Of a stretch of 57,957 nucleotides of DNA, positions 12,607 through 47,562 are shown piece by piece. The stretch is from Campylobacteraceae bacterium (GTDB taxonomy: Bacteria; Campylobacterota; Campylobacteria; Campylobacterales; JALSKU01), in the NCBI GenBank assembly GCA_026993075.1, contig JALWUQ010000048.1, forward strand, positions 1 to 57,957, in the 5' to 3' direction. Made by a program: the position numbers and the translations under genes. Position 1 is the stretch's first letter; every line of letters starts with the position of its first letter. Under the pieces are notes generated by a model. The model did no database searches. It saw only the letters and a program-made list of their open reading frames with translations, and was not told where the DNA came from.

Positions 12607-12614
12607 TAAGGTAT

Positions 12615-13625: not shown

Positions 13626-13636
13626 ATTTAATTTCC

Positions 13637-27555: not shown

Positions 27556-28376
27556 AGTAGTTTTGCCCCCTCTAATGATGAATTTTTTAATTTACTGATT
27601 ATGATATTCAAATCCTCACAACTTTGCAAAAGTGCATAATTTTTTATATTTTCTTTAATCACATCCAACAGATACGGATTTGTCCTCACAACACCTCCTC
27701 CTAAAATCAATACTTTCGGATTAAACAGTGTGATAATATTTCCGGCTGCTACAAGTAAGGCTTCGATGAAATTTTTATATATTTTTTTAGCATTTTTATC
27801 TTCTGATGCAGATAATTCTTCCAAATCAAACTTTGGAAGATCATAATAATTTTCCCACTTTTCAAGACCACTACCACTTGCAAACAGTTCAATACAGTTA
27901 TTTTTACCGCATCCGCATAGAAAAGGAGCTTTTTTAAAAGGAATATGCCCTATCTCACAAGCTATATTTTTTTCACCTCTGACAATCCTTCCATTATCGG
28001 ATACGGCTGAGCCCAAACCTGTTCCTACAAAAAGCATAGCTATATTTGATTCATCCGTATAGTTTCGCTCAGCTATCAATGCACATTTTAAATCATTTTC
28101 TATTTTTAAAGCAATTTTATATTTTTTAAAAATGTATGATTTTATATCTTTTTCTTTAATTTTTATATTCGGAGAAGACAGTATCACGCCATCATCTACT
28201 TGACCGGCAAAAGATATACCTATAAAATTGATATCATCATGCTTTAATATTTTTTTTTCAATATATTCTATCAAGTCAACTTCAATGCTTAGAACCTCTT
28301 CTTTTAAGATTATATCATTTAGAAAAAGTTCACATCTAAGTTTCGTACCACCAATATCAATATACATTTTACTCAC
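27552..28376 (-). CDS. ROK family glucokinase
   Basis: DIGGTKLR, GTGLGSAV and the zinc motif CGCGKNNCIE are present. 274 aa. Confidence 0.8.
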   Translation of the reverse strand: MSKMYIDIGGTKLRCELFLNDIILKEEVLSIEVDLIEYIEKKILKHDDINFIGISFAGQVDDGVILSSPNIKIKEKDIKSYIFKKYKIALKIENDLKCALIAERNYTDESNIAMLFVGTGLGSAVSDNGRIVRGEKNIACEIGHIPFKKAPFLCGCGKNNCIELFASGSGLEKWENYYDLPKFDLEELSASEDKNAKKIYKNFIEALLVAAGNIITLFNPKVLILGGGVVRTNPYLLDVIKENIKNYALLQSCEDLNIIISKLKNSSLEGAKLL

Positions 28377-29758
28377 AATACTTCCTTATAAAGTTTTATG
28401 TATTTTTTCGCACTTTTTGCAAAAGAGAAGTTGCATTTCATATCAAATTTAACAATTTTTTCATAATTTTTTTTATTTTCAAATATACTTAAAGCCTTTT
28501 TTATAGCGTTTAATAATTCATCTTTTTGGAATTTATCAAACTTAATACCCATCGCACACTTTCTTTCGTCTTGAAAAACAGTATCTTTTAGCCCACCAAT
28601 GCCATGCACTATAGAAATGACACCATATCTTGCTGCTATCATTTGATTTAGTCCGCAAGGCTCAAAAAGTGAAGGCATGACTAAAAAATTTGCCGAGGCA
28701 TACATCTTGTGAGACATACCCTCATCATAACCTTTTATAAAGTGGATATTTTCATATTTTTTTGATAAAAGCATAAGATTTACTTCATATTTTTTTTCAC
28801 CTTCACCCAAAATAACAAATTCAAGTTTCATTTTGGAAATATCTTTTAAAAGATCAATTATCAAAGAGATACCTTTTTGCTCAACCAATCTGCCTATAAA
28901 TATAAAAAGAGGTCTTTTGCTATTTTTTATACTAAGATTTTCATAAAAAAGATTTCTATTTTTTTCTTTTTTATTTAAAGTTTTTACATCATAATTCTCT
29001 TTTATAGATTTATCATTTTTAGGATTAAAATATTCTGTATCGATACCGTTTAATATTCCCTCAAGCTTATATTTATATTTACTTAAAAAACCATCAAGTC
29101 CACAGCCATACTCCTTTGTCTGTATCTCTTTTGCATAAGTAGGACTGACAGTTGTTATCCTATCACTATAAGCTATCCCAGCTTTTAAAAGATTGACTTT
29201 GCCGTAAAACTCAAATGATTCTTGATTAAAATATTTTTTAGGTATTTCCAAAATACTTAAAATATCTTTTTCAAAAACTCCTTGATATGCGAGATTATGG
29301 ATAGTAAATACAGACTTTACCGCTGACTTTTTTTCTTTTAAGATAAAAGCCGCCAAAGCCGTATGCCAATCATTTAAATGAACAATATCTGCTTTTAAAA
29401 GCTCTGTCACTTTTGAAATGGCATAAGAAAAAATCCCAAATCTAAGAGAGTCATTTTTATATCCGTAAAGAGTGTCAACTTCGCATAAAATATCATTATA
29501 AACAAACAAAGTGTCAATTTTTTTATCAGTATGCCTGAAAAGCTCAATTTCATAAAAATTATCCCCAAAAGTTAAGATAAATTTTTTACCAAAAGGCATA
29601 ATGTTAAATTTATCTTTATCAATAAACTTATACATTGGAGTTATATTAATAATTTCACATATTTTATTAAGCTCAAGCGGTAAAGAGTGAGCCACATCAG
29701 CCAATCCTCCACTTTTTGAGTATGGAAAGACTTCACTTGAGGCGAACAAAACTCTCAT
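28373..29758 (-). CDS. Glycogen synthase (GT5), paralog 2
   Basis: EVFPYSKSGGLADV (KSGGL variant), HNLAYQG, GRLVEQKG and PSLFEPCGLNQ are present. Confidence 0.88.
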   Translation of the reverse strand: MRVLFASSEVFPYSKSGGLADVAHSLPLELNKICEIINITPMYKFIDKDKFNIMPFGKKFILTFGDNFYEIELFRHTDKKIDTLFVYNDILCEVDTLYGYKNDSLRFGIFSYAISKVTELLKADIVHLNDWHTALAAFILKEKKSAVKSVFTIHNLAYQGVFEKDILSILEIPKKYFNQESFEFYGKVNLLKAGIAYSDRITTVSPTYAKEIQTKEYGCGLDGFLSKYKYKLEGILNGIDTEYFNPKNDKSIKENYDVKTLNKKEKNRNLFYENLSIKNSKRPLFIFIGRLVEQKGISLIIDLLKDISKMKLEFVILGEGEKKYEVNLMLLSKKYENIHFIKGYDEGMSHKMYASANFLVMPSLFEPCGLNQMIAARYGVISIVHGIGGLKDTVFQDERKCAMGIKFDKFQKDELLNAIKKALSIFENKKNYEKIVKFDMKCNFSFAKSAKKYIKLYKEVL

Positions 29759-30777
29759 ATAATTGTACTTTTAAGGAGCTCTGCCGCATTTTCAGGAGAT
29801 AGTGGATTTATATGTATCTTGCTTTGAAGCTCAAATCCTCCTACCTTGTAAATTCTTGGAATTATCCTTATGTAAAAACGGTAAAATTCATCAATTTCAT
29901 CAAAAAATTCTTCTGTTTCATAACTTTTTTGCATCGGAGGATTTTGAATATACAAATTATAATCAAAATTTCCTATTTGAACTTTCAATTTAGACAAACT
30001 ATCTTTTAACAACTCTGATATTTCGTCCAAAAGCTTTTTATCTAAAGTATCTATTGAGCTTATTTTTACTTTTGGCATTATCATAACTTCAAAAGAAAAA
30101 GCACTGGCATAAGGACAAAAAGATATAAAGTTTGCACTCTCTTTTATAACTCTTTTATTTTGCTCCAATTCATAATCTACGATATCTTTAAAAATACTTC
30201 TACCATGAGTTTTGTAATGGTTAAAATAATATTTTAGATTTGATAATTCATTTTTTGGGATTAGAGGCATCGCTATTAGTTGGGTATGAACATGAGGAAG
30301 AGTTGCACCTGAGTTTTGACCTTGATTTTTAAAAATACAAAAGTAAGTCAATCTTATATCTTTTTTCAAATCTTCAACTCTAAGCTTGATAACGCTCAGC
30401 CAATCCTTCATCTGTAAAGTCGATAAATCTTCAAAACAAATTATATGTTTTGGTGTATCTATGATAATTTCATGAGCACCAAAGCCATCTTTTTTTTCAT
30501 AAATACCATCGATATTGGATATATCAGTTGCTTCTATTTGAACTGCTTTGTAGAGATTTGGCACAACCCTAACATCCCAAGAAGAGCTGTTTTTAGCTTT
30601 TAAAGAAAATATTTCAGGCGGAGTCATATCTTCATGTCCACTACAAAACGGACAAAGAGTTTTTTCAACACTTTTTTTATCAATCTCTTGAAAAAGGTTG
30701 GGTCTTGTTAGCCTGTTTGGTGCTATTATCACTTGTTCATTACTTAATAAGTCGTATCTAAACTCAGACATTTTCAA
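29755..30777 (-). CDS. GalT-family hexose-1-phosphate nucleotidyltransferase / NDP-hexose phosphorylase
   Basis: Zinc motif CPFCSGHE and the active-site HxHxQ (HVHTQ). 340 aa. No galK/galE lies nearby. Confidence 0.75.
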   Translation of the reverse strand: MKMSEFRYDLLSNEQVIIAPNRLTRPNLFQEIDKKSVEKTLCPFCSGHEDMTPPEIFSLKAKNSSSWDVRVVPNLYKAVQIEATDISNIDGIYEKKDGFGAHEIIIDTPKHIICFEDLSTLQMKDWLSVIKLRVEDLKKDIRLTYFCIFKNQGQNSGATLPHVHTQLIAMPLIPKNELSNLKYYFNHYKTHGRSIFKDIVDYELEQNKRVIKESANFISFCPYASAFSFEVMIMPKVKISSIDTLDKKLLDEISELLKDSLSKLKVQIGNFDYNLYIQNPPMQKSYETEEFFDEIDEFYRFYIRIIPRIYKVGGFELQSKIHINPLSPENAAELLKSTII

Positions 30778-32800
30778 CCTTTAATACACCATTGATTTCA
30801 AGATTTCTACAAAAAGGAAAAACAAGTGCAAAGCTCACTCCCTGAGCCATAAGTTCAAACCCTTTTTCACTTTGAGAGACAGTATTTAGTGGAGTCATCA
30901 ATAGTTTAAAAGGTAAATTTAAAGAAAATGATAACTTTTTTTTCGTATATTTATCGATTAAAAAAAATTCTTTTATATTTTCAAATTTTATATCATCTAA
31001 TAAAGAAGTATCATCACAAAATACATTTTTCAAATCGGCAAAATGAAGATTAAATTCCAAAGCATAAAGATATTCTTTTTCACTTTTTGAATTTATTTTT
31101 ATATCAAACGCTATTCCCTCTTTTAAAAATTGATATTTTTTTGTGATAATCGTATCATACTTTTCATCAAAATATATCCCACCTTCTCTTTTAAATACAA
31201 TCTTATTTTTATCTTTTATCAGCTCAAACGGTTGATTTGCAAAATCTCCATATTCCCAAAAAGAGCATCTTTTAAAATTTTCCATAGTAAAAGTTTTATT
31301 ACTTATATGATCAATAAAAGAATTTTTAATATACCAGTCAAAACTAAGAGCATCTTTTATCTCTTTATTTACCTCTATTTCTTTGTTATGGATAGTTTCA
31401 ATTTCATCTTTTGACTTCTTTATTTTTGAAGTCTTTTGTTTTTCTATCATTTTTTGATGATAAGACTCTTCTCTTCTTGTTAAAGTATTTTGATAGTTAA
31501 ACTTTTTATCTCTTTGCAAAAATTCTACCATTTGTCCGCCATAATGGCTATCAAACCTTATTATAAAGTTATTTTTTATGATTTTTACTTCATCATATCC
31601 ATTCATATCTATATCATTTATCTCTACAGCTTCTTTATTTTTATATCTTATGTTTTCACATTCACATAAATAAGAGTAAGCATTATCTCTTAAATTTGGC
31701 AGATACAAACCCCCAAAAACTCCATGCCAAAAAACATCATTTGTCTGAAGTTTATAAAGTGAGTCTAAAAACTTTTTATTTTTTACCTTGTTGCTTGATA
31801 CTTCCAGCATCCTTTTATGAAGCCTGTTTGATTCATCATACTTAACAAAAAAATTTTTCCAAGTACCACCTTTTACAAACTTATCCGTATCATCACCGTA
31901 AACTTCTTTGGTTTTAGTTTGTATCTTTTCAAGAGTTATCGCATCTTTTGCTCTTAAACTCCATTCACCCATCTCATAATATGAAACATTTTGCAAGTAT
32001 GCGATACCTTTTGCTTTTTGCTTTTGATAATACTCATTAAAATGCATACATTCTATGGATTTATCTTTTAAAACAGTCGTAAAAAACTCTTCAAGCCATC
32101 CTTTTTCATATACCCATTCATAAGTTCCAGGCCACAAGCCAAACTTTTCTGCATCATCAAAGATGATTGCCGCACTTTGTTTTGTTTTATATAACTCTTT
32201 TATATCCTGTATAACTTCTTTTACATTTTTAAAAGGGATTGCATATCTTAATTTTTTACTTATAGGAAAAAGAGCTAGTTTCTTAGCATCGTTTTCACTA
32301 AAATAATATCCATCCAAATCTTCACTGTCAAACCCACTAGCACGAAAATGATAATCATCAACCATCGCATACGAAACTTTGCATGCAACAAAATCATTTA
32401 TAAGTGAATCCTCCCAAACTCGCTCAGTAAGCCAAGCTCCTTTTGGTATTTTTGAAAATTCTTTTTTTATATATTTATTTAATTTTTCTATTTGAGAAAT
32501 TCTATCAATACTTGGTATCGAGCTTAAAACAGGCTCATAAAATCCTGCTGTAAAAAACTCAATAGTACCATAATCACTTAATTTTTTTATATTCAAAAAT
32601 ACTTCAATATAATTTTTCTTTATATAGTCCAAAAGCCAGCCGCTACAATGAAGTGCTATTTTAAATTCTGGAAATTTTTTTAAAACTTCAAAAAAAGGCT
32701 TATAACATTTCTCAACGGCTTCATCAACAGCCTCCTTAAAATTGTCCACAGGCTGGTGCATGTGAATTCCAAAAAGAAATTTTATCTTCTTATTTTGCAT
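30764..32800 (-). CDS. GH57 4-alpha-glucanotransferase-like enzyme
   Basis: The N-terminus FLFGIHMHQPVDNF resembles the Thermococcus litoralis GH57 glucanotransferase. The nucleophile block is GAWLTERVW and the acid/base block is FDDAEKFG. 678 aa. Confidence 0.8.
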   Translation of the reverse strand: MQNKKIKFLFGIHMHQPVDNFKEAVDEAVEKCYKPFFEVLKKFPEFKIALHCSGWLLDYIKKNYIEVFLNIKKLSDYGTIEFFTAGFYEPVLSSIPSIDRISQIEKLNKYIKKEFSKIPKGAWLTERVWEDSLINDFVACKVSYAMVDDYHFRASGFDSEDLDGYYFSENDAKKLALFPISKKLRYAIPFKNVKEVIQDIKELYKTKQSAAIIFDDAEKFGLWPGTYEWVYEKGWLEEFFTTVLKDKSIECMHFNEYYQKQKAKGIAYLQNVSYYEMGEWSLRAKDAITLEKIQTKTKEVYGDDTDKFVKGGTWKNFFVKYDESNRLHKRMLEVSSNKVKNKKFLDSLYKLQTNDVFWHGVFGGLYLPNLRDNAYSYLCECENIRYKNKEAVEINDIDMNGYDEVKIIKNNFIIRFDSHYGGQMVEFLQRDKKFNYQNTLTRREESYHQKMIEKQKTSKIKKSKDEIETIHNKEIEVNKEIKDALSFDWYIKNSFIDHISNKTFTMENFKRCSFWEYGDFANQPFELIKDKNKIVFKREGGIYFDEKYDTIITKKYQFLKEGIAFDIKINSKSEKEYLYALEFNLHFADLKNVFCDDTSLLDDIKFENIKEFFLIDKYTKKKLSFSLNLPFKLLMTPLNTVSQSEKGFELMAQGVSFALVFPFCRNLEINGVLKVENV

Positions 32801-32812
32801 TTATAATCCTTA

Positions 32813-34828
32813 TTATAAAAACCAATTTTTCTCAAATTCTTCATTACAAACTTCTATATCGCCAAAGATAGGCACAAATTCGCTATTTGATTTTTTATCA
32901 GTGATTTCTATTTGAAGATTGATTTTTTTCATATTTTTACATAATTTTTTATCTATTGACAATTCCAATATATCTTTGATTGCCAGCTTCACTCCATTTT
33001 GTTCATATTTTTCCATGATCGGAAGTGTTACTATCTTCTTCAACTCTTTTAAATGAATTTTTATCTCTTTATACTCTTTAAAAAGTTTTTTATTATCCAC
33101 ATCAAGTCGTATATATATAAAATTTTCATCTTCACCATAATAAAGCTGTTGCACAATACCTCTGCTTGTATCCATAGTCGAATATGCCTTGCTCTCATCA
33201 ACCAAACCAGATCCCAGCCATTCATAAAATGAATCTTTTTTGCCGTTTACATTAGCTGTTATATTAAACTGCGGTTTTGTTTGTGAGAGTTTAGCTTCTC
33301 TCTCTTTGGATATAGGTAACATTAGATTTGATGGTATTTTCATATTTGCAAGCTTGTATATATCTTGCAAATGAGATCTAAAAAGCAAATCAAACTCTTC
33401 TAAAAAATCACTAAAATGATCATCTCCATACCACCAAAACCAATCTGAACATTCACTTGCTAAAAAATGTTTTTCTACTAATTTGTTAGTTTTTTCATCA
33501 AATACGCACTCTTTTGTATCTCTTTTGGTTTGATATATAAGCTCCCAAGCTCTATTTTTTTCATTATGCCCCACCCAAGTATCAAAAGTACCATATATCC
33601 AACTTCCCGGATGTAAAGTCGTTAATTTATTTTTTTTAAAATTATTTATTTCATCAAAATTTCTTGTTTGTATGTTTTTCTCATTTGAAAGTTTTTCATA
33701 CAATTTCATAAAAAAATCCATCGCATTGTTTTGATAAAATTCCCATGCGTTTTCGCCATCAACTATCACAAAAACAGTTACATCTTCTTTCTCGGAGTTT
33801 ATATTATTTACTTTTTGAACAAAATCATTTACCGCATCATTCGCTTTTTTATATCTATATGAAAAACCTATTAAATCACTTAGAAAATGGTCTCTAAAAG
33901 CTATAAATACATCACTGTATTCAAATAATTCATATATCAAATCTTTTTGATTATTTTTTAAAGTTTTAAAAAGTATCGCTTCATCGGTTGCTACCCATTT
34001 GATACCTTTTCTTTTATACAATTCTAAACTCTTTTCATCCACCGCCCCCTCAGCCGGCCAAAAACCATTTGGATTTGCACCAAATACTTCTTTGTATAAT
34101 TTTATAGAAAAATCAACCTGTTTTAAAGCATCATCTTCCAAAGAAAAATACTCTTTTGGTAAAGTAGTATCAGGATTTGAAATCTTCGCATTGTTCATAT
34201 CCAAAAGAAGTGGAAGTATCGGATGGTTTAAAGGTGTAGTTGAAAGTGAAATCTGTCCTTTTTTTAAAAGCTTTGCGTAAAAAGGAAGAATTTTTGGGAT
34301 AAATTTTAAGAGTGTATCTAAAAGATTTGCTTTATCAATGGCATTGTATCCCTTTTTTTTATCTATTAAATTCTTAATTATACTATCATTTTGTCTTAAA
34401 AAATTCCCACACCATGAAAGCATAAATAAAACTTCAAGCTCTATTAGTTCATTATCATCATAACTATCTTTGTAAAACAATTCTGCAAATCTTGGAAAAC
34501 TTGATACCATAGTGTCAAATTGGGAGGATTTGCATATCTTTATGAGTGATTTTTTATCAACCTTTGTTAACTCTTTTGGATCTTTTATCCAAGAGAGTAA
34601 AAACTTATCTTTTTTATATCCGTTTTTTTCATACACTTGGATTTGTTGTATCAAAGGAGGTGTAAGATTGAAAGTTGCTTTTAGATTTGGAAAAAGCGAT
34701 AAAAGCCAAGGCATTTCATAATAATCCTTAATAGAGTGCAAAAACACCCATGGCATCTGCAAAAACCCTTTCTTATCACGATAATCAGGCTGATGCATAT
34801 GCCATAAAAAAGATAAATTAACTGACAT
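32813..34828 (-). CDS. GH57 family glycoside hydrolase (alpha-amylase/amylopullulanase-like)
   Basis: LSFLWHMHQPDY, GFWPAEGAV and VIVDGENAWEF are present. 671 aa. Confidence 0.8.
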   Translation of the reverse strand: MSVNLSFLWHMHQPDYRDKKGFLQMPWVFLHSIKDYYEMPWLLSLFPNLKATFNLTPPLIQQIQVYEKNGYKKDKFLLSWIKDPKELTKVDKKSLIKICKSSQFDTMVSSFPRFAELFYKDSYDDNELIELEVLFMLSWCGNFLRQNDSIIKNLIDKKKGYNAIDKANLLDTLLKFIPKILPFYAKLLKKGQISLSTTPLNHPILPLLLDMNNAKISNPDTTLPKEYFSLEDDALKQVDFSIKLYKEVFGANPNGFWPAEGAVDEKSLELYKRKGIKWVATDEAILFKTLKNNQKDLIYELFEYSDVFIAFRDHFLSDLIGFSYRYKKANDAVNDFVQKVNNINSEKEDVTVFVIVDGENAWEFYQNNAMDFFMKLYEKLSNEKNIQTRNFDEINNFKKNKLTTLHPGSWIYGTFDTWVGHNEKNRAWELIYQTKRDTKECVFDEKTNKLVEKHFLASECSDWFWWYGDDHFSDFLEEFDLLFRSHLQDIYKLANMKIPSNLMLPISKEREAKLSQTKPQFNITANVNGKKDSFYEWLGSGLVDESKAYSTMDTSRGIVQQLYYGEDENFIYIRLDVDNKKLFKEYKEIKIHLKELKKIVTLPIMEKYEQNGVKLAIKDILELSIDKKLCKNMKKINLQIEITDKKSNSEFVPIFGDIEVCNEEFEKNWFL

Positions 34829-37350
34829 TATTTATCCATCCATTTTTCTATTTTATCTCTGTAAAGATTATTTAAATCTTCTCCTCTTTCTTTAGTTTTT
34901 GCTTGAACATAAAGATTTAAAAAATCATCGAATTGATCTGGTATCATAAGTATCCAATCTTCTTCATTTTCCCATATTTTAACTCCATCAACTGTTGAGG
35001 ATTTTTTGCTTTTTGCTTTTTGTAAAAATTTTCTCATAATTTTACCTTTTAACGCTTGAGAACACTCTATTTTGCATTGGTGATAATAAAAATCTTCAAA
35101 ATTTCCAGCTATATTTGAAAGTTTTTCTTTTTGACGAGATAACATTTCCATGATTTTCAAACTTGCATAAATGGCATCTCTGTGTAGTGAAAATTCACTA
35201 AAAGCAAAATTACCATCGATTGTCGCTATAAGGTCGTACTGCTTCATTTTATCTGCTTTGAAATTTGCATATTTTCCTCTTTTTATGATAAGATTTTCAA
35301 ACTTCTCATCCATAAAATCAGGTGCCCAGCTGGGCAAAAATACAACTTTCTTCTTATCTTTCGCCTCAAGATTAAAAAGATACATAACACAAAGCAATGC
35401 TTTTATCTTGTTTAAAACCTCTCCTTTATCTGTGATGATAGAAAGTCTTTGACCATTTGGATACATAAGTATTCCCAAACTCAAACCAAGACTTTTTACG
35501 ATGGCGGAAACTTCTTCTTTTGATTTTTCTTCAATGTGTAAAATATTTGCCATCTTGTGATAATCAGTATAAGCATTTAGTAAAATATTTTCCACCTGAA
35601 TATCGGCCATAATTTCAGGAAAGATATCTTTAGTTCCACCAAACATCAAATCAACTACTACTTTAAAATTATTTTTTTTGATAATACTGTGATCAATAGC
35701 GTTTTCAATGGCACTTTTATACTTATGGCATTCATCTAAATGATGAACATAGTTTTCTCTTATTCTTCCTATCCTGTTATATTCAACTCTTCTAAATTTT
35801 TGTTGGAAAAATGCTTTTTCAACTGATTTTGCCATATCAGTATCTATCCTAAGTCCCTCTTCAGTAAAAAAGGTAAATTCTACACTAGTAGGGTCATTCA
35901 TATTTTGTCTAAAATAAATACCTGCAATTAAGCTGTCATCATTTCCTAAATTATATCTTAAAACCGCCGGAGGCATAGCCTTTAAATCTATCACATTAAT
36001 ACCCCCAGAAAGCAATCCTCCTAAAAATGCTCTCTTTAACATCCTTGCACTTTTACTGTGATCTCTTGCTACTATAACCGTACTTCCAATAGGCAACTGT
36101 GAGGCAAATGCTTCTGAAATCTGGCAAGACATTTCACAAGAAAGCTCAACATTACTCTTTCCTATAACTCTTCCATATTCAATAAGAGAATTTTTATATT
36201 TACTTCCCCATACGATATTATTATTAACGATAGAGGTTGCCTCTATACTTTTATGAGGCCAGACTGTCACATCTTGTTCAAATTTTACAAGTTTGCCGAC
36301 ATCACACCCCTCAGCCAAAACAACTCCAGCCTTTGCCGTAACAAAATCATCTATTTTGTTATCATTACAAATGACGCAATTATCAAGTATACATTTTTTA
36401 CCAACATCTATATCATTCCAAAAAACAGAATTTCTAACTCTACAATCTTCACCTATGACTACATTATCACCTATAACAACATTATGAAGCCTTGTTCTTT
36501 TACCTATCTTGACATTTGTTCCTATAACAACACTATCGACTATCTCAACACTTGAATCAATACTGCTTTCTCCGGTTAAATGCAAAATCCCATCAGGATA
36601 TTTTATCTTCTTTCCTGGTATTTCAAAATCTAATTTATTATTAAAAATATCATCATACACTTCTTTGTAACTCTCGGGGTTACCCACATCCCTCCAGTAA
36701 CCTTTCGCGTTATAAGACATCAAATCTACTCCTTTTTCCATAAGAAGTGGAAATAAATCTTTAGCAAAGTCGAAGCTGTCCTCTTTTGGAATATACTCCA
36801 ATATCTCAGGCTCAATCACATAAATACCCGTATTTATAGTATCACTGAAAACTTCACCCCAGCTTGGTTTTTCTAAAAATTTTTCTATTTTTCCCTCATC
36901 ATTTGTAATAACCACGCCAAACTGAAGAGGGTTTTCAACAGAAGTTAGAGTTATGGAGAGTTTTGCATTTACTTTGTAATGATGTTTAATAATTTTTTCA
37001 AAATCAAAATCACTTACCAAATCTCCACTGACTATGATAAAAGTAGTATCTAAAAATTCTCTTGCACATCCAACAGCCCCGGCAGTCCCGTAGTCTTCCG
37101 CAGGCAGTACATACTCTATATTTGCACCCCACTTACTTCCATCTCCAAAGTAATTTTTTATAATTTCAGGTTTAAAATACAACAAAAAAATTATATCTTT
37201 TATACCGATATCAACTAACTTTTTTAAAGTATGCTCCATCATAGGAAAATTAAATATCGGCAACATTGGCTTTGGCATCGAATTGGTCAGCGGTTGGATT
37301 CTCGTACCAAATCCGCCTGCCATCATCACGGCTTTTATCTTCTTGGGCAT
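34828..37350 (-). CDS. Sugar-1-phosphate nucleotidyltransferase + left-handed beta-helix fused to a degenerate PGM/PMM-like domain
   Basis: 840 aa. The N-terminus has MMAGGFGTRIQPLT...MPKPMLP and hexapeptide repeats (VVIGDNVVIGEDCRV...). The C-terminal half aligns to the PGM/PMM fold but lacks the signature loops (see findings). Confidence 0.8.
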   Translation of the reverse strand: MPKKIKAVMMAGGFGTRIQPLTNSMPKPMLPIFNFPMMEHTLKKLVDIGIKDIIFLLYFKPEIIKNYFGDGSKWGANIEYVLPAEDYGTAGAVGCAREFLDTTFIIVSGDLVSDFDFEKIIKHHYKVNAKLSITLTSVENPLQFGVVITNDEGKIEKFLEKPSWGEVFSDTINTGIYVIEPEILEYIPKEDSFDFAKDLFPLLMEKGVDLMSYNAKGYWRDVGNPESYKEVYDDIFNNKLDFEIPGKKIKYPDGILHLTGESSIDSSVEIVDSVVIGTNVKIGKRTRLHNVVIGDNVVIGEDCRVRNSVFWNDIDVGKKCILDNCVICNDNKIDDFVTAKAGVVLAEGCDVGKLVKFEQDVTVWPHKSIEATSIVNNNIVWGSKYKNSLIEYGRVIGKSNVELSCEMSCQISEAFASQLPIGSTVIVARDHSKSARMLKRAFLGGLLSGGINVIDLKAMPPAVLRYNLGNDDSLIAGIYFRQNMNDPTSVEFTFFTEEGLRIDTDMAKSVEKAFFQQKFRRVEYNRIGRIRENYVHHLDECHKYKSAIENAIDHSIIKKNNFKVVVDLMFGGTKDIFPEIMADIQVENILLNAYTDYHKMANILHIEEKSKEEVSAIVKSLGLSLGILMYPNGQRLSIITDKGEVLNKIKALLCVMYLFNLEAKDKKKVVFLPSWAPDFMDEKFENLIIKRGKYANFKADKMKQYDLIATIDGNFAFSEFSLHRDAIYASLKIMEMLSRQKEKLSNIAGNFEDFYYHQCKIECSQALKGKIMRKFLQKAKSKKSSTVDGVKIWENEEDWILMIPDQFDDFLNLYVQAKTKERGEDLNNLYRDKIEKWMDK

Positions 37351-37373: not shown

Positions 37374-37655
37374 TTAGACTTCTATGGCAGAATTAGTACT
37401 CCCAAAACTATTTTGAACTTCCAGAGCATCTGCTTCATTTTCCCAAATGCTACCATCTATCAAATATTTAAATTCATAAATTTGTCCTATCGGAAGTATT
37501 TTTGTTATATAAAAATCTCCATTTTTCTTTTGTTTCATTTTTTCTTTACTCCAGTCACTCCAAGAACCTGTTATCTCAACTGTTTTCTCCTCATTTGTTG
37601 GAACATAAGTAAATGTAACCCAAGCTTTATCCGCATTTTTCTTAACTTTCAACAT
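37374..37655 (-). CDS. Stand-alone CBM48 (AMPK-beta-type glycogen-binding) protein
   Basis: 93 aa. VEITGSWSDWSK...GDFYITKILPIGQIYEFKYLIDGSIWEN...NSFGSTNSAIEV matches the CBM48/GBD consensus. There is no signal peptide. Confidence 0.75.
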   Translation of the reverse strand: MLKVKKNADKAWVTFTYVPTNEEKTVEITGSWSDWSKEKMKQKKNGDFYITKILPIGQIYEFKYLIDGSIWENEADALEVQNSFGSTNSAIEV

Positions 37656-37667
37656 TTCATCCTCCTT

Positions 37668-39305
37668 TTATTTTTTATAAACTTTTTCATAATATTCTCT
37701 AACCATCCTGGAAGAGTCAAAATACCGTATATCATTCATACCATTTTGTATGATTTGCACCCATTTTTTTTCATCATCATAGTAAGTAGGCAGTATCTCA
37801 TCTTCTAAGATACTCATCATACTTTCATAATCCTTTTTATCTTGCTCTTCTATACTAAGAGTTGTATCTGCATGATGGATTGTAAATGAATTAATATCAT
37901 CTTTATAAAACTCATCATGCCATCCATCGTCAATAGAAAAATGGATACAGGCATTTGAAACTGCACTCATTCCGCTAGTACCGCTTGCTTCTCTTGAATA
38001 CCTTGGAGTATTTAGCCAAATATCACCTCCTTGTTTTAAAAGTTTTGAAAGCCTCAATTCATACCCTATTAAGACAGCTACATTCTTATACTCTTTCGCA
38101 ATTTTAATAAGCTCATTAAACATATTGACAGCACGATAATCAAGTGGATATGGTTTACCTGCCCAAATGATTTGCACAGGTCTTTTAGTATCATTTATAA
38201 GTTTTTTAAATCTTTGCATATCATAAGTTAAAAGCCATGGTCTTTTATATTCGGCAAATCTTCTTGCCCATACGATAGTTAAAATATCAGGATCAAATAT
38301 CTTTCCTGTTTGGTCTGCGACTTCTTCAAAAAGCAACCTTTTTAAATGTTTTTTTCTCCCAATTATCTGGTACTCTTCATGCTCTTGAAACCAGCTAACT
38401 AACTGTTTATCAGCCCAATACCTCATATTTTGTGCATTTGTTATACCTATTATCTCACATTTTCCTTTTACCCCACTCCACATTTCATTAGCAACTTTGG
38501 CATGTATTTTAGAAACAGCATTGGCAATTTTTGAAACTTTTAAAGCTCCTATTGTTAAAGAAAAATTATCATCTTCATAATTTAATATTTTTTTTACTTC
38601 TTCTGCTCCTAAGCTGCCAAAAAAGCCCATCCTTTCTAAAAGGCTTATATCATGTTCTTCATTTCCTGCTATTTCTGGAGTATGAGTAGTAAAAACGACT
38701 CTTTTTTTAACTTCTTCCAAACTTTCTAAATTTTCCAAAAGCTTAAATGCCAAAGGCAAGGCATGCCCTTCGTTTAAATGATAAATATCTATCTCTTCAT
38801 TAAGGGCTTCAAGAACCTTTACTCCACCTATACCTAAAACTATCTCTTGAGCGATTCTTGTTTCTTCGTTGGCATCATACAGTTTGTGAGTAATCGTCCT
38901 TGCCAAATAATCATTTTCAAAAACATCGGTTGAGAGCAGTATAAGAGGTGCGGTATCAAAACAAGATGAAGGTAAAAGATAAGCTTTTACTGTTATTGGC
39001 TTGGAATTTATCATAACTGTTACTTTGATATTTAAATCTCTTATAAAATAGTAAAATTTTCTTAAAAAATCTATCTTTAAACTTCTGTCTTCATGTCTGT
39101 GTTGATCATAATATCCATAACTCCACAAAAGCCCTACACCGATAGTATTTTGTCTTAAATCATTCGCACTTCTAAGATGAGAACCTGCTAAAAAACCAAG
39201 TCCTCCCGAGTAATTTTTAAAAGCTTGATCTATTGCAAACTCCATCGAAAAGTAAGCGACTTTTGTGCTGTATCTTTCATTTATATCATAATCAATCAGT
39301 TTCAT
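37668..39305 (-). CDS. GT35 alpha-glucan phosphorylase-family paralog lacking the PLP lysine (candidate pseudoenzyme)
   Basis: 545 aa. YSGGLGFLAG, HLNEGH, FTTHTP and ARRFAEYKR are conserved, but the PLP motif reads EASGTSGMS instead of GTSGMK. Confidence 0.8.
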   Translation of the reverse strand: MKLIDYDINERYSTKVAYFSMEFAIDQAFKNYSGGLGFLAGSHLRSANDLRQNTIGVGLLWSYGYYDQHRHEDRSLKIDFLRKFYYFIRDLNIKVTVMINSKPITVKAYLLPSSCFDTAPLILLSTDVFENDYLARTITHKLYDANEETRIAQEIVLGIGGVKVLEALNEEIDIYHLNEGHALPLAFKLLENLESLEEVKKRVVFTTHTPEIAGNEEHDISLLERMGFFGSLGAEEVKKILNYEDDNFSLTIGALKVSKIANAVSKIHAKVANEMWSGVKGKCEIIGITNAQNMRYWADKQLVSWFQEHEEYQIIGRKKHLKRLLFEEVADQTGKIFDPDILTIVWARRFAEYKRPWLLTYDMQRFKKLINDTKRPVQIIWAGKPYPLDYRAVNMFNELIKIAKEYKNVAVLIGYELRLSKLLKQGGDIWLNTPRYSREASGTSGMSAVSNACIHFSIDDGWHDEFYKDDINSFTIHHADTTLSIEEQDKKDYESMMSILEDEILPTYYDDEKKWVQIIQNGMNDIRYFDSSRMVREYYEKVYKK

Positions 39306-40565
39306 CTATTTATCGCCTCCAAATTTTTTAACTAATATTTTTTTACCATTTTCAACGCCTGGCTGGTCATAAGTATTTATCCCAAGAAGCAAGCCTGTAT
39401 ATGAAGTAAGCAATTCAAAATACATTATCATTTCTCCTATATTTTCTTCACTTATTATATCTAAAGTTATACTGTCAACAGGAATATTTTCAGCAATTAA
39501 GCTCTCTTTTGTCGCATCGCACTCTGCATTTATAAGTTCATTAAAAGAGTGAGAGTTTATATAATCAACTTTTTCAATATTTTTTAAAGATATAGAAGGA
39601 ACAATCAAATCATTTTCAAAATCTTCAACTTTTATAAATGTGACTGTCTTGTCTCTTACTCCTTGCATAATAAGTTGTAAAAAAGAGTGTTGATCTACTG
39701 AGCCTATGTGTCCAATAGGAGTCAAACCGGTATGTTTGCCTTCTTTGTCAATTTTTCCAAGAGACTCAGCCCATAACTGCACGAACCATTTGGTAAAATC
39801 TTCCAAACAATCAGCATAAGAAAAAAGTACATTCACAGGGTATTTTTTTTGTGCATAAAAAAGAGCTTTTAAGCCTATACTCTCAATTCTGCTGTCAAAA
39901 AATTTATCCATTATCGATTTTGCACCTTTTAGTATCGATTCAACATCAAATCCTGCCAATTTCAAAGGAACTACTCCAACCGCACTTAAAACAGAAAACC
40001 GCCCTCCTACATTTTGAGGTATAACAAAAACTTTGATGCCGTGAAAATCAGCAAATTTACAAAGAGGCGAACCATCATCGCTAACAACAAGCACTCTTTT
40101 ATTCTCAGCTGTATTTAAATCTATATCAAAATGTGCAATAACTGTCTTAAAAATAGAAGTTGTCTCTATAGTTCCTCCGGATTTGGATATTACTACAAAT
40201 ATAGAATTTTCTTTTTTTATCTGTGAAAATATTTTTGATATACTCAAAGGATCAGGATTTTCCAAAAAAAGTAAATTTTTAATATTTTTATATTTATGCT
40301 TTAATACAGAATTTACAGCTTTTGTACCCAAAGATGAACCGCCAATCCCTATAACTACAATATTCTCAGCACTTTGATAAATCCCATCTTCATTTATAAT
40401 ATAATTTTCTACCTCTTTCAAAAGATGAATAGAATCATCAGGAAGATTATAATATCCACTTACTCCTTTTTCTCTCTCTTGTATCATCGAGCCAAATGCA
40501 TTTAGCAAAAGTATACTGTTTTCTTCATCAATTTCTACATCCAAATATCTCTCATACTGTATCAT
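39306..40565 (-). CDS. pgi: Glucose-6-phosphate isomerase
   Basis: 419 aa. IGIGGSSLG and GGRFSVLSAVG are present. Confidence 0.9.
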   Translation of the reverse strand: MIQYERYLDVEIDEENSILLLNAFGSMIQEREKGVSGYYNLPDDSIHLLKEVENYIINEDGIYQSAENIVVIGIGGSSLGTKAVNSVLKHKYKNIKNLLFLENPDPLSISKIFSQIKKENSIFVVISKSGGTIETTSIFKTVIAHFDIDLNTAENKRVLVVSDDGSPLCKFADFHGIKVFVIPQNVGGRFSVLSAVGVVPLKLAGFDVESILKGAKSIMDKFFDSRIESIGLKALFYAQKKYPVNVLFSYADCLEDFTKWFVQLWAESLGKIDKEGKHTGLTPIGHIGSVDQHSFLQLIMQGVRDKTVTFIKVEDFENDLIVPSISLKNIEKVDYINSHSFNELINAECDATKESLIAENIPVDSITLDIISEENIGEMIMYFELLTSYTGLLLGINTYDQPGVENGKKILVKKFGGDK

Positions 40566-40566
40566 T

Positions 40567-42210
40567 TTATCCCTCCTTAAAAACTTTTTTTATCATTTGT
40601 TTAGCTTCGTTTTGTATAGATTTTAAATGCTCCAACGATACAAAACTCTCTGCATAAATCTTATAAATATCTTCTGTCCCAGATGGTCTCAAAGCAACCC
40701 AACTGTTTTTTGTAACTATTTTAACTCCACCTATTTTTGCACCATTTCCTGAAGCTTTTGAAAAAATATACTCTATCTTCTCACCGCCTAAACTCTTTTC
40801 TTTTATATCTTTTGGCTCTATATTTTTCAATATATCTTTTTGCTCTTTGGTTGCTGTAACATCTATTCTTGCATAGTATGCTTTTGAGAAACTTTTTTCA
40901 AAATCGCTGTAAATATCACTTAAATCTCTTTTTTGACTTGCAATGATTTCAGCTGAGAGGAGATTGAGTATAATACCGTCTTTATCTGTAGTCCAAACAC
41001 TCTCATCAAACCTCAAAAAAGAAGCCCCCGCGCTCTCTTCACCGCCAAATCCAAGTTCGCCGTCAAACAAACCTTTTGAAAACCACTTAAAACCAACAGG
41101 CACTTCATATATCTTTCTGTTTAGAGATGTTGCAACTTTGTCTATCATAGAACTTGAAACTAAAGTTTTTCCTATTTTTAATCCTTTGCTCCAATGTCTA
41201 TGTTTAAACAGGTACCAAATAGCAACACTAAGATAATGATTTGGATTTAAAAGTCCGCCTTTTGGTGTGACTATACCATGCCTGTCAGAGTCAACATCAT
41301 TGGCAAATGCTATATCATACTTATCTTTTAGTCCAATCAACCCTGCCATCGCGTAAACAGATGAGCAATCCATCCTGATTTTACCGTCATGGTCTAAATG
41401 CATAAAAGAAAAAGTAGGATCTACAAATGGATCTATAATATCCATATCAAGAGAGTATATCTCATTTATCTTTTTATAAACAGCTATACTTGCCCCACCC
41501 AAAGGGTTGACTCCTATCTTTAATTTTGCTTTTTTTAGCAAATCCATATCAATAATATCTTTTAAAGATTCTACATAAGGTGTGATAAAATCATACTCTT
41601 TTATATATCCGCTTCGCATAGCATCTTCAAGTGAAATACTCTTAACACTTAAAAGATTATTTTTCAAGATTTCATTTGCTTTTTTTTCTATGATATTTGT
41701 TATATCACTCTCAGCCGGTCCTCCATTTGGTGGATTATATTTATAACCTCCATCACTTGGCGGGTTGTGTGAAGGTGTTATAACCACTCCATCACCTTTT
41801 TTATTATTTGTTTTATTATATTCCAATATGGCAAATGAAACTAAAGGGGTTGGCGTATACTCATCATCTTTAGCTATAAATACATTTACCTCATTTGCAG
41901 CAAAAACTTCCAAAGAAGTGAGTTGTGCGGGAATAGAAAGGGCATGTGTATCTTTACCTAAAAATAAAACTCCATCAATACCATTTTCTTTTCTATAATC
42001 ACAAATAGCTTGAGAGATAGCTTTAACATGGTACTCATTAAAGCTTTTTTTGTAGGCATTTCCTCTGTGACCAGAGGTTCCAAATGAGACTGTTTGCTCT
42101 TTTTTACTCATGTCCGGAGTTAACATATAGTATGCACTTATAAGTGCTGGTATATTTTCAAGTTTATCTTTTGAGACAAGTTTTCCCGCATTTTTATCTA
42201 TCATTTTCAA
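40567..42210 (-). CDS. pgm: Phosphoglucomutase (alpha-D-glucose phosphate-specific)
   Basis: 547 aa with all four loops intact: TPSHNP, DVDSDR, GGEESAG and RPSGTED. Confidence 0.93.
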   Translation of the reverse strand: MKMIDKNAGKLVSKDKLENIPALISAYYMLTPDMSKKEQTVSFGTSGHRGNAYKKSFNEYHVKAISQAICDYRKENGIDGVLFLGKDTHALSIPAQLTSLEVFAANEVNVFIAKDDEYTPTPLVSFAILEYNKTNNKKGDGVVITPSHNPPSDGGYKYNPPNGGPAESDITNIIEKKANEILKNNLLSVKSISLEDAMRSGYIKEYDFITPYVESLKDIIDMDLLKKAKLKIGVNPLGGASIAVYKKINEIYSLDMDIIDPFVDPTFSFMHLDHDGKIRMDCSSVYAMAGLIGLKDKYDIAFANDVDSDRHGIVTPKGGLLNPNHYLSVAIWYLFKHRHWSKGLKIGKTLVSSSMIDKVATSLNRKIYEVPVGFKWFSKGLFDGELGFGGEESAGASFLRFDESVWTTDKDGIILNLLSAEIIASQKRDLSDIYSDFEKSFSKAYYARIDVTATKEQKDILKNIEPKDIKEKSLGGEKIEYIFSKASGNGAKIGGVKIVTKNSWVALRPSGTEDIYKIYAESFVSLEHLKSIQNEAKQMIKKVFKEG

Positions 42211-44159: not shown

Positions 44160-46286
44160 TTATATCTCCTTCATAAGTTTTTTTGATATAGGTATATAAA
44201 ATTTATCCGCATACTCTTTCATCATTCGTCTTGCACTAAACTTAGGAGTTATGCTGATAATAGAGTTTTTCATCATCTCTACCCATTTCTCGGGTATATT
44301 ATTTTCATTTAGATCATAGTACAAAGATGCAATTTCCTTTTCTATGATATCGTAAAGGGCGATAGAATCATTCTCATCATTTGCACTCTCCCCTCCAAAC
44401 GCCCAACCGTTTTTATCACCTATTGCCTCAGGCCACCACCCATCTAAGCTTGATAAATGCAAAGTTCCATTTATACTGGCTTTCATCCCACTAGTCCCGC
44501 AAGCTTCCATAGGAATTTGAGGATTGTTCAGCCAAACATCAACTCCTCTGACCAAATATTTTGCCACCTCTTCTGCATAATCCTCTATAAAAGCAATCCT
44601 GCCTTTTAACTTAGGATTTTGAGCTGTTTTAAAAATATTTTGTATCATTTTCTTACCCGGGTTATCGGATGGATGAGCTTTTCCGGCAAAGATTATCTGC
44701 ACAGGCTTATCACTGTTATTTAGTATATTCTCAAGTCTTTGTAAATCTCTTAATAAAAGATTTGGTCTTTTATAGCTTGTCATTCTCCTTGCAAATCCGA
44801 TAGTTAGTATATCAGGATCAAGCATAACTCCCTCAGCCATTGCGACTAATGGATCAATACCTTCATCAGACCACTTTCGCCTAACTCTTTCTCTTATAAA
44901 ATTAACCAATCGTACTTTGTTAGCATAATGCAAATCCCAAATCTCTTTATTACTTATTTCATTTATACGGGTCCAAATAGCGGGATTATCCTCTAAATGA
45001 ATCCAATCTTCACCCAAAACTTCATTTAAATTTTCAAAAAGCTCATCTGAAAGCCAAGTTGATAAATGTACACCGTTTGTTACATACTCTATAGGAACTT
45101 CTTCTTTTTTATCTACGGCAAAAACACTTTTCCATATCTCTTTTGTAACTTCACAATGTTTTTTACTGACAGCATTACGGTTATTGCACATTTTAAGCCC
45201 AAAAACCGTCATATTAAATCCACCTCCGGGAGAGTCTGGATTTATACCAAAACTAAAAAACTCTTCCTTGCTCATTCCAAGTCTCTTCCAGTAATCACCA
45301 AAATAATTACTCATCATATCAAAACTATACACATCAGTTGCAGCTTGAAGAGGAGTATGTGTTGTGAAAACAGAAGTTTCTCTTACTTTTTGCAAGGCAT
45401 CTTCAAGGCTTAATTTTTCATTTTCTATAAAACTTCTAACCCTTTCAAAAAGTGCAAAAGCAGGATGACCTTCATTTAAATGAAGTATTGAATACTCTAT
45501 TCCCAACTCTTCAAGCACTTTGTATCCACCAATTCCCAAAACTATCTGTTGCCTTAATCTTTGATTTAAATCAGGTACATAAAGATGAGAGCAGATTTCT
45601 CTATCCCAAGGGTCATTTTGTTCAATATCCGTATCAAGCAAATATAGAGTAACTCTTCCCACATTTATCTTCCAAACAGAAGCAAATACAGGAGGATCTA
45701 TAAAAGGGACTTGTATTGTAAAATGATTGCCTTGTTCGTCCAAAACTCTTTCTATTGGTGCTGTATCTTTGTCTATGGTTTCATTTGCTCCGTTTTGCCA
45801 TCCGTCACTTCCTATGATTTGCCTTATGTAACCTTGAGGATACATAAAGCCGATACCTACCATAGGGATATTCATATCGCTTGATTCTTTTAGTATATCT
45901 CCCGCTAAAAATCCGAGACCGCCTGAATATATGGGAATTGAATGATGAAGACCAAACTCGGCACAAAAATATGCTATTGGCAAAGGTTCTACTAACTTGG
46001 TATCATTGCCCATATAATCTTTAAAAAGAGCATAAACATAGTTATATTCTTGCATAAACTGTTTATTTTGCAGTAAATTATCCAATTCGTCTTTTGATAA
46101 AATTTTGAGTAATTTTATTGGATTATGATTACTCTCTTTCCAGAGGTAAGGACTTATAAGTTTAAATAAATTTTTACCTTTTGGGTTCCATGTCCACCAT
46201 ATATTTAGTGCGATTTCACCAAGACCCTCTATCTCTTTTGGAAGATTAGGAATGGCTATGTTGGCTGAGGGATCTTTACCTAACAT
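44160..46286 (-). CDS. glgP: Alpha-glucan phosphorylase (GT35, glucan-family type), intact paralog
   Basis: YSGGLGFLAGD, HLNEGH, FTTHTP, ARRMTSYKR, AGKAHPSDNPGKK and the PLP motif EACGTSGMK are present. ATG 46286 lies 1 nt after the eno stop. The ORF opens at TTG 46319. Confidence 0.88.
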   Translation of the reverse strand: MLGKDPSANIAIPNLPKEIEGLGEIALNIWWTWNPKGKNLFKLISPYLWKESNHNPIKLLKILSKDELDNLLQNKQFMQEYNYVYALFKDYMGNDTKLVEPLPIAYFCAEFGLHHSIPIYSGGLGFLAGDILKESSDMNIPMVGIGFMYPQGYIRQIIGSDGWQNGANETIDKDTAPIERVLDEQGNHFTIQVPFIDPPVFASVWKINVGRVTLYLLDTDIEQNDPWDREICSHLYVPDLNQRLRQQIVLGIGGYKVLEELGIEYSILHLNEGHPAFALFERVRSFIENEKLSLEDALQKVRETSVFTTHTPLQAATDVYSFDMMSNYFGDYWKRLGMSKEEFFSFGINPDSPGGGFNMTVFGLKMCNNRNAVSKKHCEVTKEIWKSVFAVDKKEEVPIEYVTNGVHLSTWLSDELFENLNEVLGEDWIHLEDNPAIWTRINEISNKEIWDLHYANKVRLVNFIRERVRRKWSDEGIDPLVAMAEGVMLDPDILTIGFARRMTSYKRPNLLLRDLQRLENILNNSDKPVQIIFAGKAHPSDNPGKKMIQNIFKTAQNPKLKGRIAFIEDYAEEVAKYLVRGVDVWLNNPQIPMEACGTSGMKASINGTLHLSSLDGWWPEAIGDKNGWAFGGESANDENDSIALYDIIEKEIASLYYDLNENNIPEKWVEMMKNSIISITPKFSARRMMKEYADKFYIPISKKLMKEI

Positions 46287-46287
46287 C

Positions 46288-47562
46288 TTATTTCCAATAA
46301 TACTTAGCTCTATCGCCAAGTCTTTCTTCTATCTCAAGGAGTCTATTATATTTTGCAAGCCTTTCACTTCTTGATGCAGACCCGCTTTTTAAGTGCCCAG
46401 TACCCATAGCTACCGTAAAATCAGCTAAAAAAGTATCACAAGTTTCACCAGAGCGATGCGATACAAAGGCTCTCCAGTTATGTTCATAACAAAGTCTTAC
46501 CGCGTCAACCGTTTCACTAACCGTTCCTATTTGATTTAATTTTATCAAAGAAGCATTGGCAGTATGTTCTTTGATACCTCTTTGTATAAATTTTGTATTT
46601 GTTACGAAGATATCATCACCCACAACTTCTATTTTATCTCCCAACTCTTTTGTAAACTTGGTAAATCCTTCCCAATCCTCTTCAGCCAAAGGATCTTCCC
46701 AAAGAATAATGGGGTATTTTTCAACCCATTGTTTTGACATTTCTATCATTTCATCAGTACTTTTTTTACCGGCACCTGACCATTTCATGTCATACTCGCC
46801 TTTTTTCCCGACTACAAAAGAAGTTGCCGCATTATCAAGTGCTATGGATATATCGACTCCCGGTTTGTATCCGCTTTTTTCAATAGCTTCTATGATTATC
46901 TCTATTGCTTCTTCATTACTTTGAAGATTTGGTGCAAAACCACCCTCATCTCCAACAGAAGTTGCAAGTCCTCTTATTTTGAGTAATTTTTTTAAAGTGT
47001 GAAAAGTCTCAGCCACATATCTAAGACCTTCCCTAAATGAAGGAGCACCAAAAGGAACTGCCATAAACTCTTGTATATCTACACTGTTATCAGCATGCTC
47101 ACCGCCATTTAATATATTCATACATGGTACAGGAAGCCTATTAGCTTCAGCTCCTCCAAGGTACTCATAAACTTCAAGATTATGACTCTTTGCAGCTGCT
47201 TTTGTTGCAGCCATAGAGACTCCAAGGATTGCATTCGCACCAAGTTTATCTTTATTTTCCGTACCGTCAAGCTCATTTAAAAGATTGTCTATTTTCATTT
47301 GTTCGGTAGCATCTATTCCTTTTAAAGCAGGAGATATAATTTCATTTACATTTTTAACAGCATCTAAAACTCCCTTACCGCCAAATCTTCTTTTATCACC
47401 ATCACGAAGCTCACAAGCTTCATATTCACCGGTACTAGCTCCACTTGGAACAGAAGATCTCACTCTTGTGCCATCTTCAAGATCCATAAAAACTCTTACA
47501 GTAGGGTTTCCTCTGCTATCAAGAATTTCCATTGCTTTTATATCTTTGATTTTACTGCTCAT
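46288..47562 (-). CDS. eno: Enolase
   Basis: 424 aa. ILDSRGNPTV and SHRSGETCDTFLADF are present. Confidence 0.97.
   Translation of the reverse strand: MSSKIKDIKAMEILDSRGNPTVRVFMDLEDGTRVRSSVPSGASTGEYEACELRDGDKRRFGGKGVLDAVKNVNEIISPALKGIDATEQMKIDNLLNELDGTENKDKLGANAILGVSMAATKAAAKSHNLEVYEYLGGAEANRLPVPCMNILNGGEHADNSVDIQEFMAVPFGAPSFREGLRYVAETFHTLKKLLKIRGLATSVGDEGGFAPNLQSNEEAIEIIIEAIEKSGYKPGVDISIALDNAATSFVVGKKGEYDMKWSGAGKKSTDEMIEMSKQWVEKYPIILWEDPLAEEDWEGFTKFTKELGDKIEVVGDDIFVTNTKFIQRGIKEHTANASLIKLNQIGTVSETVDAVRLCYEHNWRAFVSHRSGETCDTFLADFTVAMGTGHLKSGSASRSERLAKYNRLLEIEERLGDRAKYYWK

Follow-up and report, generated by a model that had tools for sequence, protein, structure and literature searches.

Pyridoxal phosphate (PLP), bound through a Schiff base to a lysine, was long regarded as indispensable to all alpha-glucan phosphorylases, but a clade lacking this lysine shows otherwise; only one member of it, from an archaeon, has been characterised. 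In the glycogen phosphorylases (GPs) of Methanococcales the lysine is replaced by threonine, in some cases by serine, and the enzyme of M. maripaludis (MmGP; Lys to Thr) contains no PLP as judged by ultraviolet-visible absorbance, fluorescence, cyanohydrin assay and mass spectrometry (10.1101/2024.09.29.615707). Recombinant MmGP phosphorolyses glycogen with ordinary kinetics (Km for orthophosphate 0.74 mM), prefers branched glycogen and responds to ADP- and UDP-glucose as effectors (10.1101/2024.09.29.615707, bioRxiv 2024; then FEBS J 2025, 10.1111/febs.70182). Gonzalez-Ordenes et al. proposed that a second orthophosphate occupies the PLP-phosphate site, and in their model the ring site is filled by a bulky residue (10.1101/2024.09.29.615707). 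Here we describe a bacterial gene of this kind at positions 37668-39305, minus strand, of a 57,957-nt stretch of DNA (hereafter the window) from a Campylobacteraceae bacterium (contig JALWUQ010000048.1). Its 545-aa product has serine at the lysine position, and we consider it likely (probability roughly 0.7) that it would act as a PLP-independent GP supplying glucose-1-phosphate to the phosphoglucomutase and phosphoglucose isomerase (PGI) encoded next to it, with a non-covalent anion in place of the cofactor phosphate.

Two further described systems frame the comparison. The first is clade VIII of the GP1 phosphorylases, with proteins of about 550 residues and a subclade in which the lysine is replaced by Thr, Gly or Ala, distributed over the FCB group with Melainabacteria, Archaea and Verrucomicrobiota, including Bacteroidota and Akkermansia (Nat Commun 2026, PMC13324651). 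The second is the GP of Segatella copri (ScGP; PDB 9l6i/20yr; PNAS 2026, PMC12912991), the closest solved structure to the 545-aa protein (E 1e-66), which shares its GP1-type GT-B fold but differs in its length of 852 aa, its extra N- and C-terminal domains, its pentameric assembly and the presence of PLP on K609. What is new here is modest, as the kind of enzyme has already been published: the MmGP and GP1 phylogeny papers make no mention of members from Campylobacterota or Desulfurellales, of a bacterial Ser variant, or of a PLP-type GP encoded alongside in one operon, and these features—Campylobacterota membership, bacterial Ser at the site and the co-encoded PLP-type paralog—are what the window adds.

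Loss of the PLP-anchoring lysine

The gene and two sites within it are as follows.

37668-39305, minus strand: short lysine-less GT35/GP1 alpha-glucan phosphorylase, 545 aa, with Ser447 and without the DUF3417 N-terminal domain
37965-37967, minus strand: AGT codon of Ser447, in the column of the PLP Schiff-base lysine (K609 of S. copri GP; K of CGTSGMK in the paralog)
38244-38264, minus strand: codons of R348-R349...K354 (ARRFAEYK), phosphate/substrate contacts equivalent to R507, R508 and K513 of S. copri GP

The product of 37668-39305 is a GT35 protein that has lost its PLP-anchoring lysine, and the loss is real and conserved. The protein scores 427.7 bits against TIGR02094 (cutoff 191.7) and 49.2 against PF00343 (cutoff 27), its sole Pfam match; it passes these family cutoffs of the hidden Markov models while lacking the Schiff-base lysine of the GT35/TIGR02094 motif E-A-S-G-T-x-x-M-K. 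The translation reads EASGTSGM-S, within GDIWLNTPRYSREASGTSGMSAVSNACIHFSIDDGWHDE, the motif being REASGTSGMSAVSN, and the minus-strand codons at 37970-37965 are ATG AGT, i.e., Met446-Ser447. Ser447 lies opposite residue 609 of S. copri GP in a HMMER alignment against PDB sequences, and opposite the lysine of the paralog (708 or 719 aa, depending on the start) in a BLASTP alignment that spans nearly the full length of the short protein at 31% identity. Translation, codon (37967-37965) and both alignments agree with the original prediction, made from the sequence alone, of a GT35 protein with AGT (Ser) in place of the Schiff-base lysine. With 545 residues and no DUF3417 or other long N-terminal domain, the protein also falls within the size range of short lysine-less GPs (about 520-570 aa).

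That the gene is a decaying pseudogene, or its sequence an error of sequencing or assembly, has a negligible probability: no point in its favour was found in homologs, loci, runs or dN/dS, and all four speak against it. The reading frame is intact, and the entire gene is matched with 0 differences by Logan contigs from three independent hydrothermal-vent runs, at a word depth of 220-460x. The strain variant present in a fourth run differs at 11 single nucleotides, none of them within the Ser447 codon. The gene is under purifying selection, with a dN/dS of 0.115 against a 96%-identical ortholog (0.054 for the lysine-bearing paralog), and the change is conserved clade-wide. A private mutation is ruled out, as is sequencing error, by the homolog columns, the 83 loci described below and the contigs of independent runs. 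An additional contig in runs X2 and X3, short but well covered, links 38025 to 38145 of the window and has unrelated sequence before 38002; its probable source is a related gene from some other strain or species of these samples, which matches only over short conserved stretches.

Orthologs with lysine at this position would have pointed to an isolated change, and none was seen. Among the 120 closest homologs listed (66-100% identity), column 447 holds Ser in 90, Thr in 28 and Ala in 1, with no Lys; the motif pattern was unmatched in 1. A genome scan gave 80 loci at 52-65% identity to the lysine-less protein, all bacterial, from Sulfurovum, Sulfurimonas, Sulfuricurvum, Arcobacter, Desulfurellales, many Chitinophagaceae, Cytophagales, Chryseobacterium, Pedobacter and Akkermansiaceae. 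Three more contigs bring the total to 83 loci spanning Campylobacterota, Bacteroidota, Verrucomicrobiota and Desulfurellales, in which the column is Thr (75), Ser (7) or Ala (1), and again never Lys. What is conserved is the lysine-less state, the residue itself varying among Ser, Thr and Ala.

A neighbour-joining tree of aligned 50%-identity representatives from an exhaustive search shows the same separation. All full-length lysine-less representatives (S, T, G or A; 529-571 aa) fall on one side and all lysine-bearing ones, short and long forms including the window paralog, on the other, with 100/100 bootstrap support after removal of the lysine column. The subclade with the 545-aa protein (87/100) has named members from Bacteroidota and Vampirovibrionales, and a second lysine-less subclade includes Candidatus Sungbacteria. 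Relatives at 52-56% identity come from Chitinophagaceae, Cytophagales, Flavobacteria-type genera and Akkermansiaceae, and a representative at 45% identity from Vampirovibrionales (Melainabacteria). The 545-aa protein thus groups with lysine-less proteins of Bacteroidota, Verrucomicrobiota and Melainabacteria, apart from lysine-bearing GP1. The split indicates that the loss of the lysine is ancient and common to the whole clade rather than an event in this operon. As the relatives come from the taxonomic set of the lysine-less clade VIII subclade, and length and replaced lysine also agree, the tree and taxonomy place the 545-aa protein in that subclade; it differs from the described members (Thr, Gly, Ala) in its Ser, its vent-dwelling Campylobacterota-like host and its glycogen/glycolysis operon. 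No Methanococcus-like composition was found among 150 representatives, which is uninformative since the window's own cluster had itself collapsed into a 52%-identical representative.

Retained contacts and predicted structure

In rabbit and E. coli phosphorylases the 5'-phosphate of PLP is held by two elements, the residue equivalent to R348 of the 545-aa protein (K568 in rabbit) and the N-terminus of the helix that starts at SGTSG. Both the GGLG and the SGTSG loop are kept. Substrate and product contacts in the S. copri structure are made by H316, R507, R508 and K513, the PLP-bearing lysine being K609 (PMC12912991), and the HMMER alignment equates these four contacts with H208, R348, R349 and K354. 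All four are invariant in an alignment of 43 homologs, as are G34-G37 (GGLG), H176-N178-E179-H181 (HLNEGH) and E439-G445. The blocks YSGGLGFLAG, HLNEGH, FTTHTP and ARRFAEYKR, earlier described as retained, are indeed present in the translation. As the phosphate-holding elements are retained and the lysine is gone, the phosphate subsite looks intact, judging from these alignments, and the ring anchor lost.

Several other positions switch together with the lysine. Ala becomes Pro at 385 (AGKA to AGKP), with 0% overlap between the lysine-bearing and lysine-less groups; Gly-Phe becomes Val-Trp at 345-346; Asp becomes Ser or other residues at 42 (LAGD); Gly becomes other residues at 392; and Trp becomes Phe at 474. 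Two of these changes, LAGD to LAGS and AGKAHP to AGKPYP, had already been read from the translations of both open reading frames, which bear them out. A further candidate was Lys424 (codon 38034-38036, minus strand), which is invariant in 20/20 lysine-less representatives and in the 43 close homologs, and whose column in 113 lysine-bearing GP1 sequences usually holds Val and never Lys. By this comparison it is a clade-specific residue; considered as a residue compensating for the lost lysine, it was set aside, its place at a helix end before the strand 429-432 suggesting that it is distant from the active site.

These changes bear on whether PLP, or some other phospho-cofactor (pyrophosphate or pyridoxal-diphospho compounds, for example), could still be bound, without a Schiff base. 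Phosphorylase chemistry uses only the 5'-phosphate of the cofactor and not the Schiff base (10.1101/2024.09.29.615707), the phosphate-holding residues are conserved, and PLP is available in the cell: the window encodes a lysine-bearing GP and serine hydroxymethyltransferase, itself a PLP enzyme, and therefore the organism does not lack PLP. However, the ring pocket has changed alongside the lysine (Ala to Pro at 385, Phe to Trp at 346, Asp to Ser at 42), and MmGP is PLP-free by four methods and has its modelled ring site occupied. Non-covalent retention of such a cofactor is consequently unlikely.

The AlphaFold2 model of the 545-aa protein (pLDDT 84.7, pTM 0.85) finds only GT35 phosphorylases, and no synthases, among its top 50 PDB structural matches, the best being S. 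copri GP 20yr/9l6i (TMq 0.88/0.86). Model confidence drops below 50 only at residues 26-36 and 436-440, the loops flanking the former PLP site, and at 467-469.

The structural matches also weigh on a change of donor, by which the protein would be a glucan synthase or transferase dependent on nucleoside-diphosphate (NDP)-glucose, with the nucleotide-sugar phosphate in the former PLP-phosphate site. GT5 glycogen synthases (GlgA) share with GT35 the GT-B fold and retaining glucosyl transfer to an alpha-1,4-glucan, without PLP; some homologs have weak precomputed PF08323 matches, the 545-aa protein has a faint GlgA match, a short distance downstream is a fusion gene for a sugar-1-phosphate nucleotidyltransferase, and MmGP responds to ADP- and UDP-glucose, the donors of GT5 enzymes. 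The GlgA match (NF001899, 18.8 bits) is nevertheless far below its cutoff of 459, as the 545-aa protein is below every GT5 model threshold, with neither PF08323 nor PF00534; MmGP phosphorolyses; and the cluster already has two bona fide GT5 glycogen synthases. A donor switch is thus very improbable, and the idea that the lysine-less protein is the cluster's missing glycogen synthase is ruled out by those two synthases and the phosphorylase-only structural matches.

Two phosphorylases in a glycogen and glycolysis cluster

The lysine-less gene lies within a co-directional set of genes, of which the following concern it most directly.

24166-51132, minus strand: co-directional glycogen and glycolysis/gluconeogenesis cluster, 27 kb, about 18 genes
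44160-46319, minus strand: lysine-bearing canonical GP1 paralog (DUF3417 + phosphorylase; CGTSGMK), 719-aa open reading frame
40567-42210, minus strand: phosphoglucomutase, upstream of PGI
39306-40565, minus strand: PGI, directly upstream of the lysine-less gene, its stop abutting the start codon of that gene
37374-37655, minus strand: stand-alone glycogen-binding module (AMPK1_CBM/CBM48-like) of 93 aa, PF16561 at 43.9 bits, no catalytic domain

The cluster runs from phosphoenolpyruvate synthase through class-I fructose-bisphosphate aldolase, enolase, the lysine-bearing GP, glyceraldehyde-3-phosphate dehydrogenase, dPGM, phosphoglucomutase and PGI to the lysine-less GP, and continues with the CBM48 protein, a fusion of NTP-transferase and phosphomannomutase (PMM), two GH57 enzymes, a GalT/HIT-like protein, a GT5 GlgA, a ROK kinase, a second GT5 GlgA and the GH13 GlgB. 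The order is the same in two near-identical contigs, and the whole looks like one super-operon. PGI and phosphoglucomutase (39306-42210; TIGR01132 at 803.6 bits and NF003016 at 552.6 bits) are the enzymes that consume the glucose-1-phosphate product. In 11/12 other Campylobacterota loci the lysine-less ortholog likewise stands among glycogen genes.

Both window phosphorylases belong to the TIGR02094 family and to the same operon, but they share only 31% identity, and the paralog has the DUF3417 domain, internal insertions, the lysine and a place on the lysine-bearing side of the tree. The two are thereby assigned to different deep GP1 clades, and the suggestion that the lysine was lost locally, in a recent duplicate within the operon, fails on this divergence and on the clade-wide loss. 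The TTG start of the 719-aa frame gives a 32-nt overlap with the end of enolase (46286-46319), whereas the ATG at 46286 (708 aa) is the start called in the near-identical contigs and is probably the true one. The short protein is shorter, as had been stated, but not by some 170 residues at the N-terminus: its residue 16 aligns by BLASTP with residue 104 of the 708-aa form, so that only about 90-100 residues, the missing DUF3417, are N-terminal and the rest are internal gaps, mainly near 300-335.

Next to an intact PLP-type GP, the lysine-less protein might be a catalytically dead pseudo-phosphorylase, i.e., a glycogen-binding, scaffolding or regulatory partner of, e.g., the lysine-bearing GP or the CBM48 protein. 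The canonical cofactor anchor is lost, the other GP of the operon could provide the activity, and a glycogen-binding module gene directly follows. But the non-cofactor catalytic contacts and both phosphate-binding loops are invariant across phyla, which a mere binder would not need; most of the 12 other Campylobacterota loci examined have no lysine-bearing paralog within 10 kb of the lysine-less ortholog; and MmGP is active without the lysine. A dead protein is for these reasons quite unlikely, and the view that lysine and PLP are essential in all GT35 enzymes is superseded by the active, PLP-free MmGP (10.1101/2024.09.29.615707) and the lysine-less GPs of about 550 aa (PMC13324651).

The preferred explanation remains an active, PLP-independent GP. 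By analogy with MmGP, we infer catalytic activity, absence of PLP and a two-phosphate mechanism for the 545-aa protein: with its sites for glucan and substrate phosphate and the loops for the PLP 5'-phosphate kept, and the tether of the pyridoxal ring lost, it would accommodate a non-covalent anion where the PLP phosphate normally sits, in the simplest case a second orthophosphate. This anion would provide the acid/base function needed to activate the substrate phosphate, and the resulting glucose-1-phosphate would pass to phosphoglucomutase, PGI and the glycolytic enzymes of the same operon. The likeness to MmGP (Q6LXX5) lies in the short chain (about 60 kDa) without a long N-terminal region, the small hydroxyl residue in place of the EASGT..M-K lysine, and the conserved GGLG motif and phosphate-site residues. 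MmGP differs in being archaeal, in having Thr rather than Ser and in being the sole GP of its organism, whereas the 545-aa protein is bacterial and stands beside a PLP-type paralog.

Several points weigh against this explanation. The only characterised lysine-less enzyme is the archaeal MmGP, likened to the 545-aa protein on its published description, and the lysine may have been lost independently in Methanococcales. The two-phosphate mechanism is, in its source paper too, no more than a modelling proposal (10.1101/2024.09.29.615707). The AlphaFold2 model is least confident at both cofactor-site loops, residues 26-36 and 436-440, and a search for expression evidence found no RNA run holding the lysine-less gene.

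A fairly unlikely variant is that, with PLP-type and PLP-free GPs co-transcribed, the latter is not a simple substitute and has a distinct chemistry or role. Pyrophosphate, a sugar phosphate or a nucleotide sugar might then occupy the vacated site as an alternative acid/base, so that metabolite levels gate glycogen breakdown, or the lysine-less GP and the CBM48 protein might work on granule-bound branched glycogen and the PLP enzyme on soluble maltodextrins. Within the preferred explanation of a PLP-independent GP, a division of labour is also reasonable, in which the short enzyme would act on branched glycogen and the DUF3417 enzyme on maltodextrins from the GH57 enzymes, because MmGP prefers branched glycogen and the paralog resembles the model of Thermococcales-type maltodextrin phosphorylase (NF041129, 694 bits, below the equivalog cutoff).

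The window thus supplies a bacterial member of the lysine-less clade, from a moderately thermophilic vent organism, with Ser at the site and a clear metabolic context, and with the PLP-dependent paralog of the same operon it offers two matched enzymes on which to study what takes over from the PLP phosphate and why the cell keeps both. Annotations as "alpha-glucan family phosphorylase" in Campylobacterota, Hippea and Bacteroidota include predicted PLP-free enzymes, which should not be labelled as PLP-dependent or as pseudogenes.

Other genes of the cluster

The CBM48 reading frame starts 12 nt past the stop of the lysine-less gene and is also present in the two near-identical contigs (L084 and L085). 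Its adjacency, pointed out earlier, is confirmed in the window but is inconsistent in relatives: in the Sulfurovum loci L001 (5663-5938) and L007 (12639-12908) it lies directly upstream of the nucleotidyltransferase fusion gene, with another gene between it and the lysine-less gene, and in several Campylobacterota loci it is absent beside the lysine-less gene. A role as dedicated partner of the lysine-less GP is unsupported, the module being absent or travelling with the nucleotidyltransferase gene in relatives.

That fusion gene (34828-37350, minus strand) encodes 840 aa, with a sugar-1-phosphate nucleotidyltransferase (NTP_transferase and left-handed beta-helix) joined to a phosphomutase of phosphoglucomutase/PMM type; its best model is mannose-1-P guanylyltransferase, below cutoff, and it has 53-57% identity to proteins of other Campylobacterota loci. 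Such a polypeptide could by itself convert a sugar-6-phosphate to an NDP-sugar. Synthesis and branching each apparently have duplicate systems, with divergent GT5 glycogen synthase paralogs at 26083-27555 and 28373-29758 (minus strand) and the ROK-family kinase between them, a GH13 branching enzyme at 24166-26082, and two GH57 enzymes at 30764-32800 and 32813-34828. The GalT/HIT-family gene (29755-30777, minus strand) shares a few bases with each neighbouring gene and occupies the same position in several Campylobacterota loci; its product might be an enzyme not of galactose metabolism but of NDP-glucose phosphorolysis or exchange. Outside the cluster, at 11779-14239 (minus strand), two open reading frames (336 aa and 200 aa) without a Pfam match follow a tyrosine recombinase of XerC/D or phage-integrase type.

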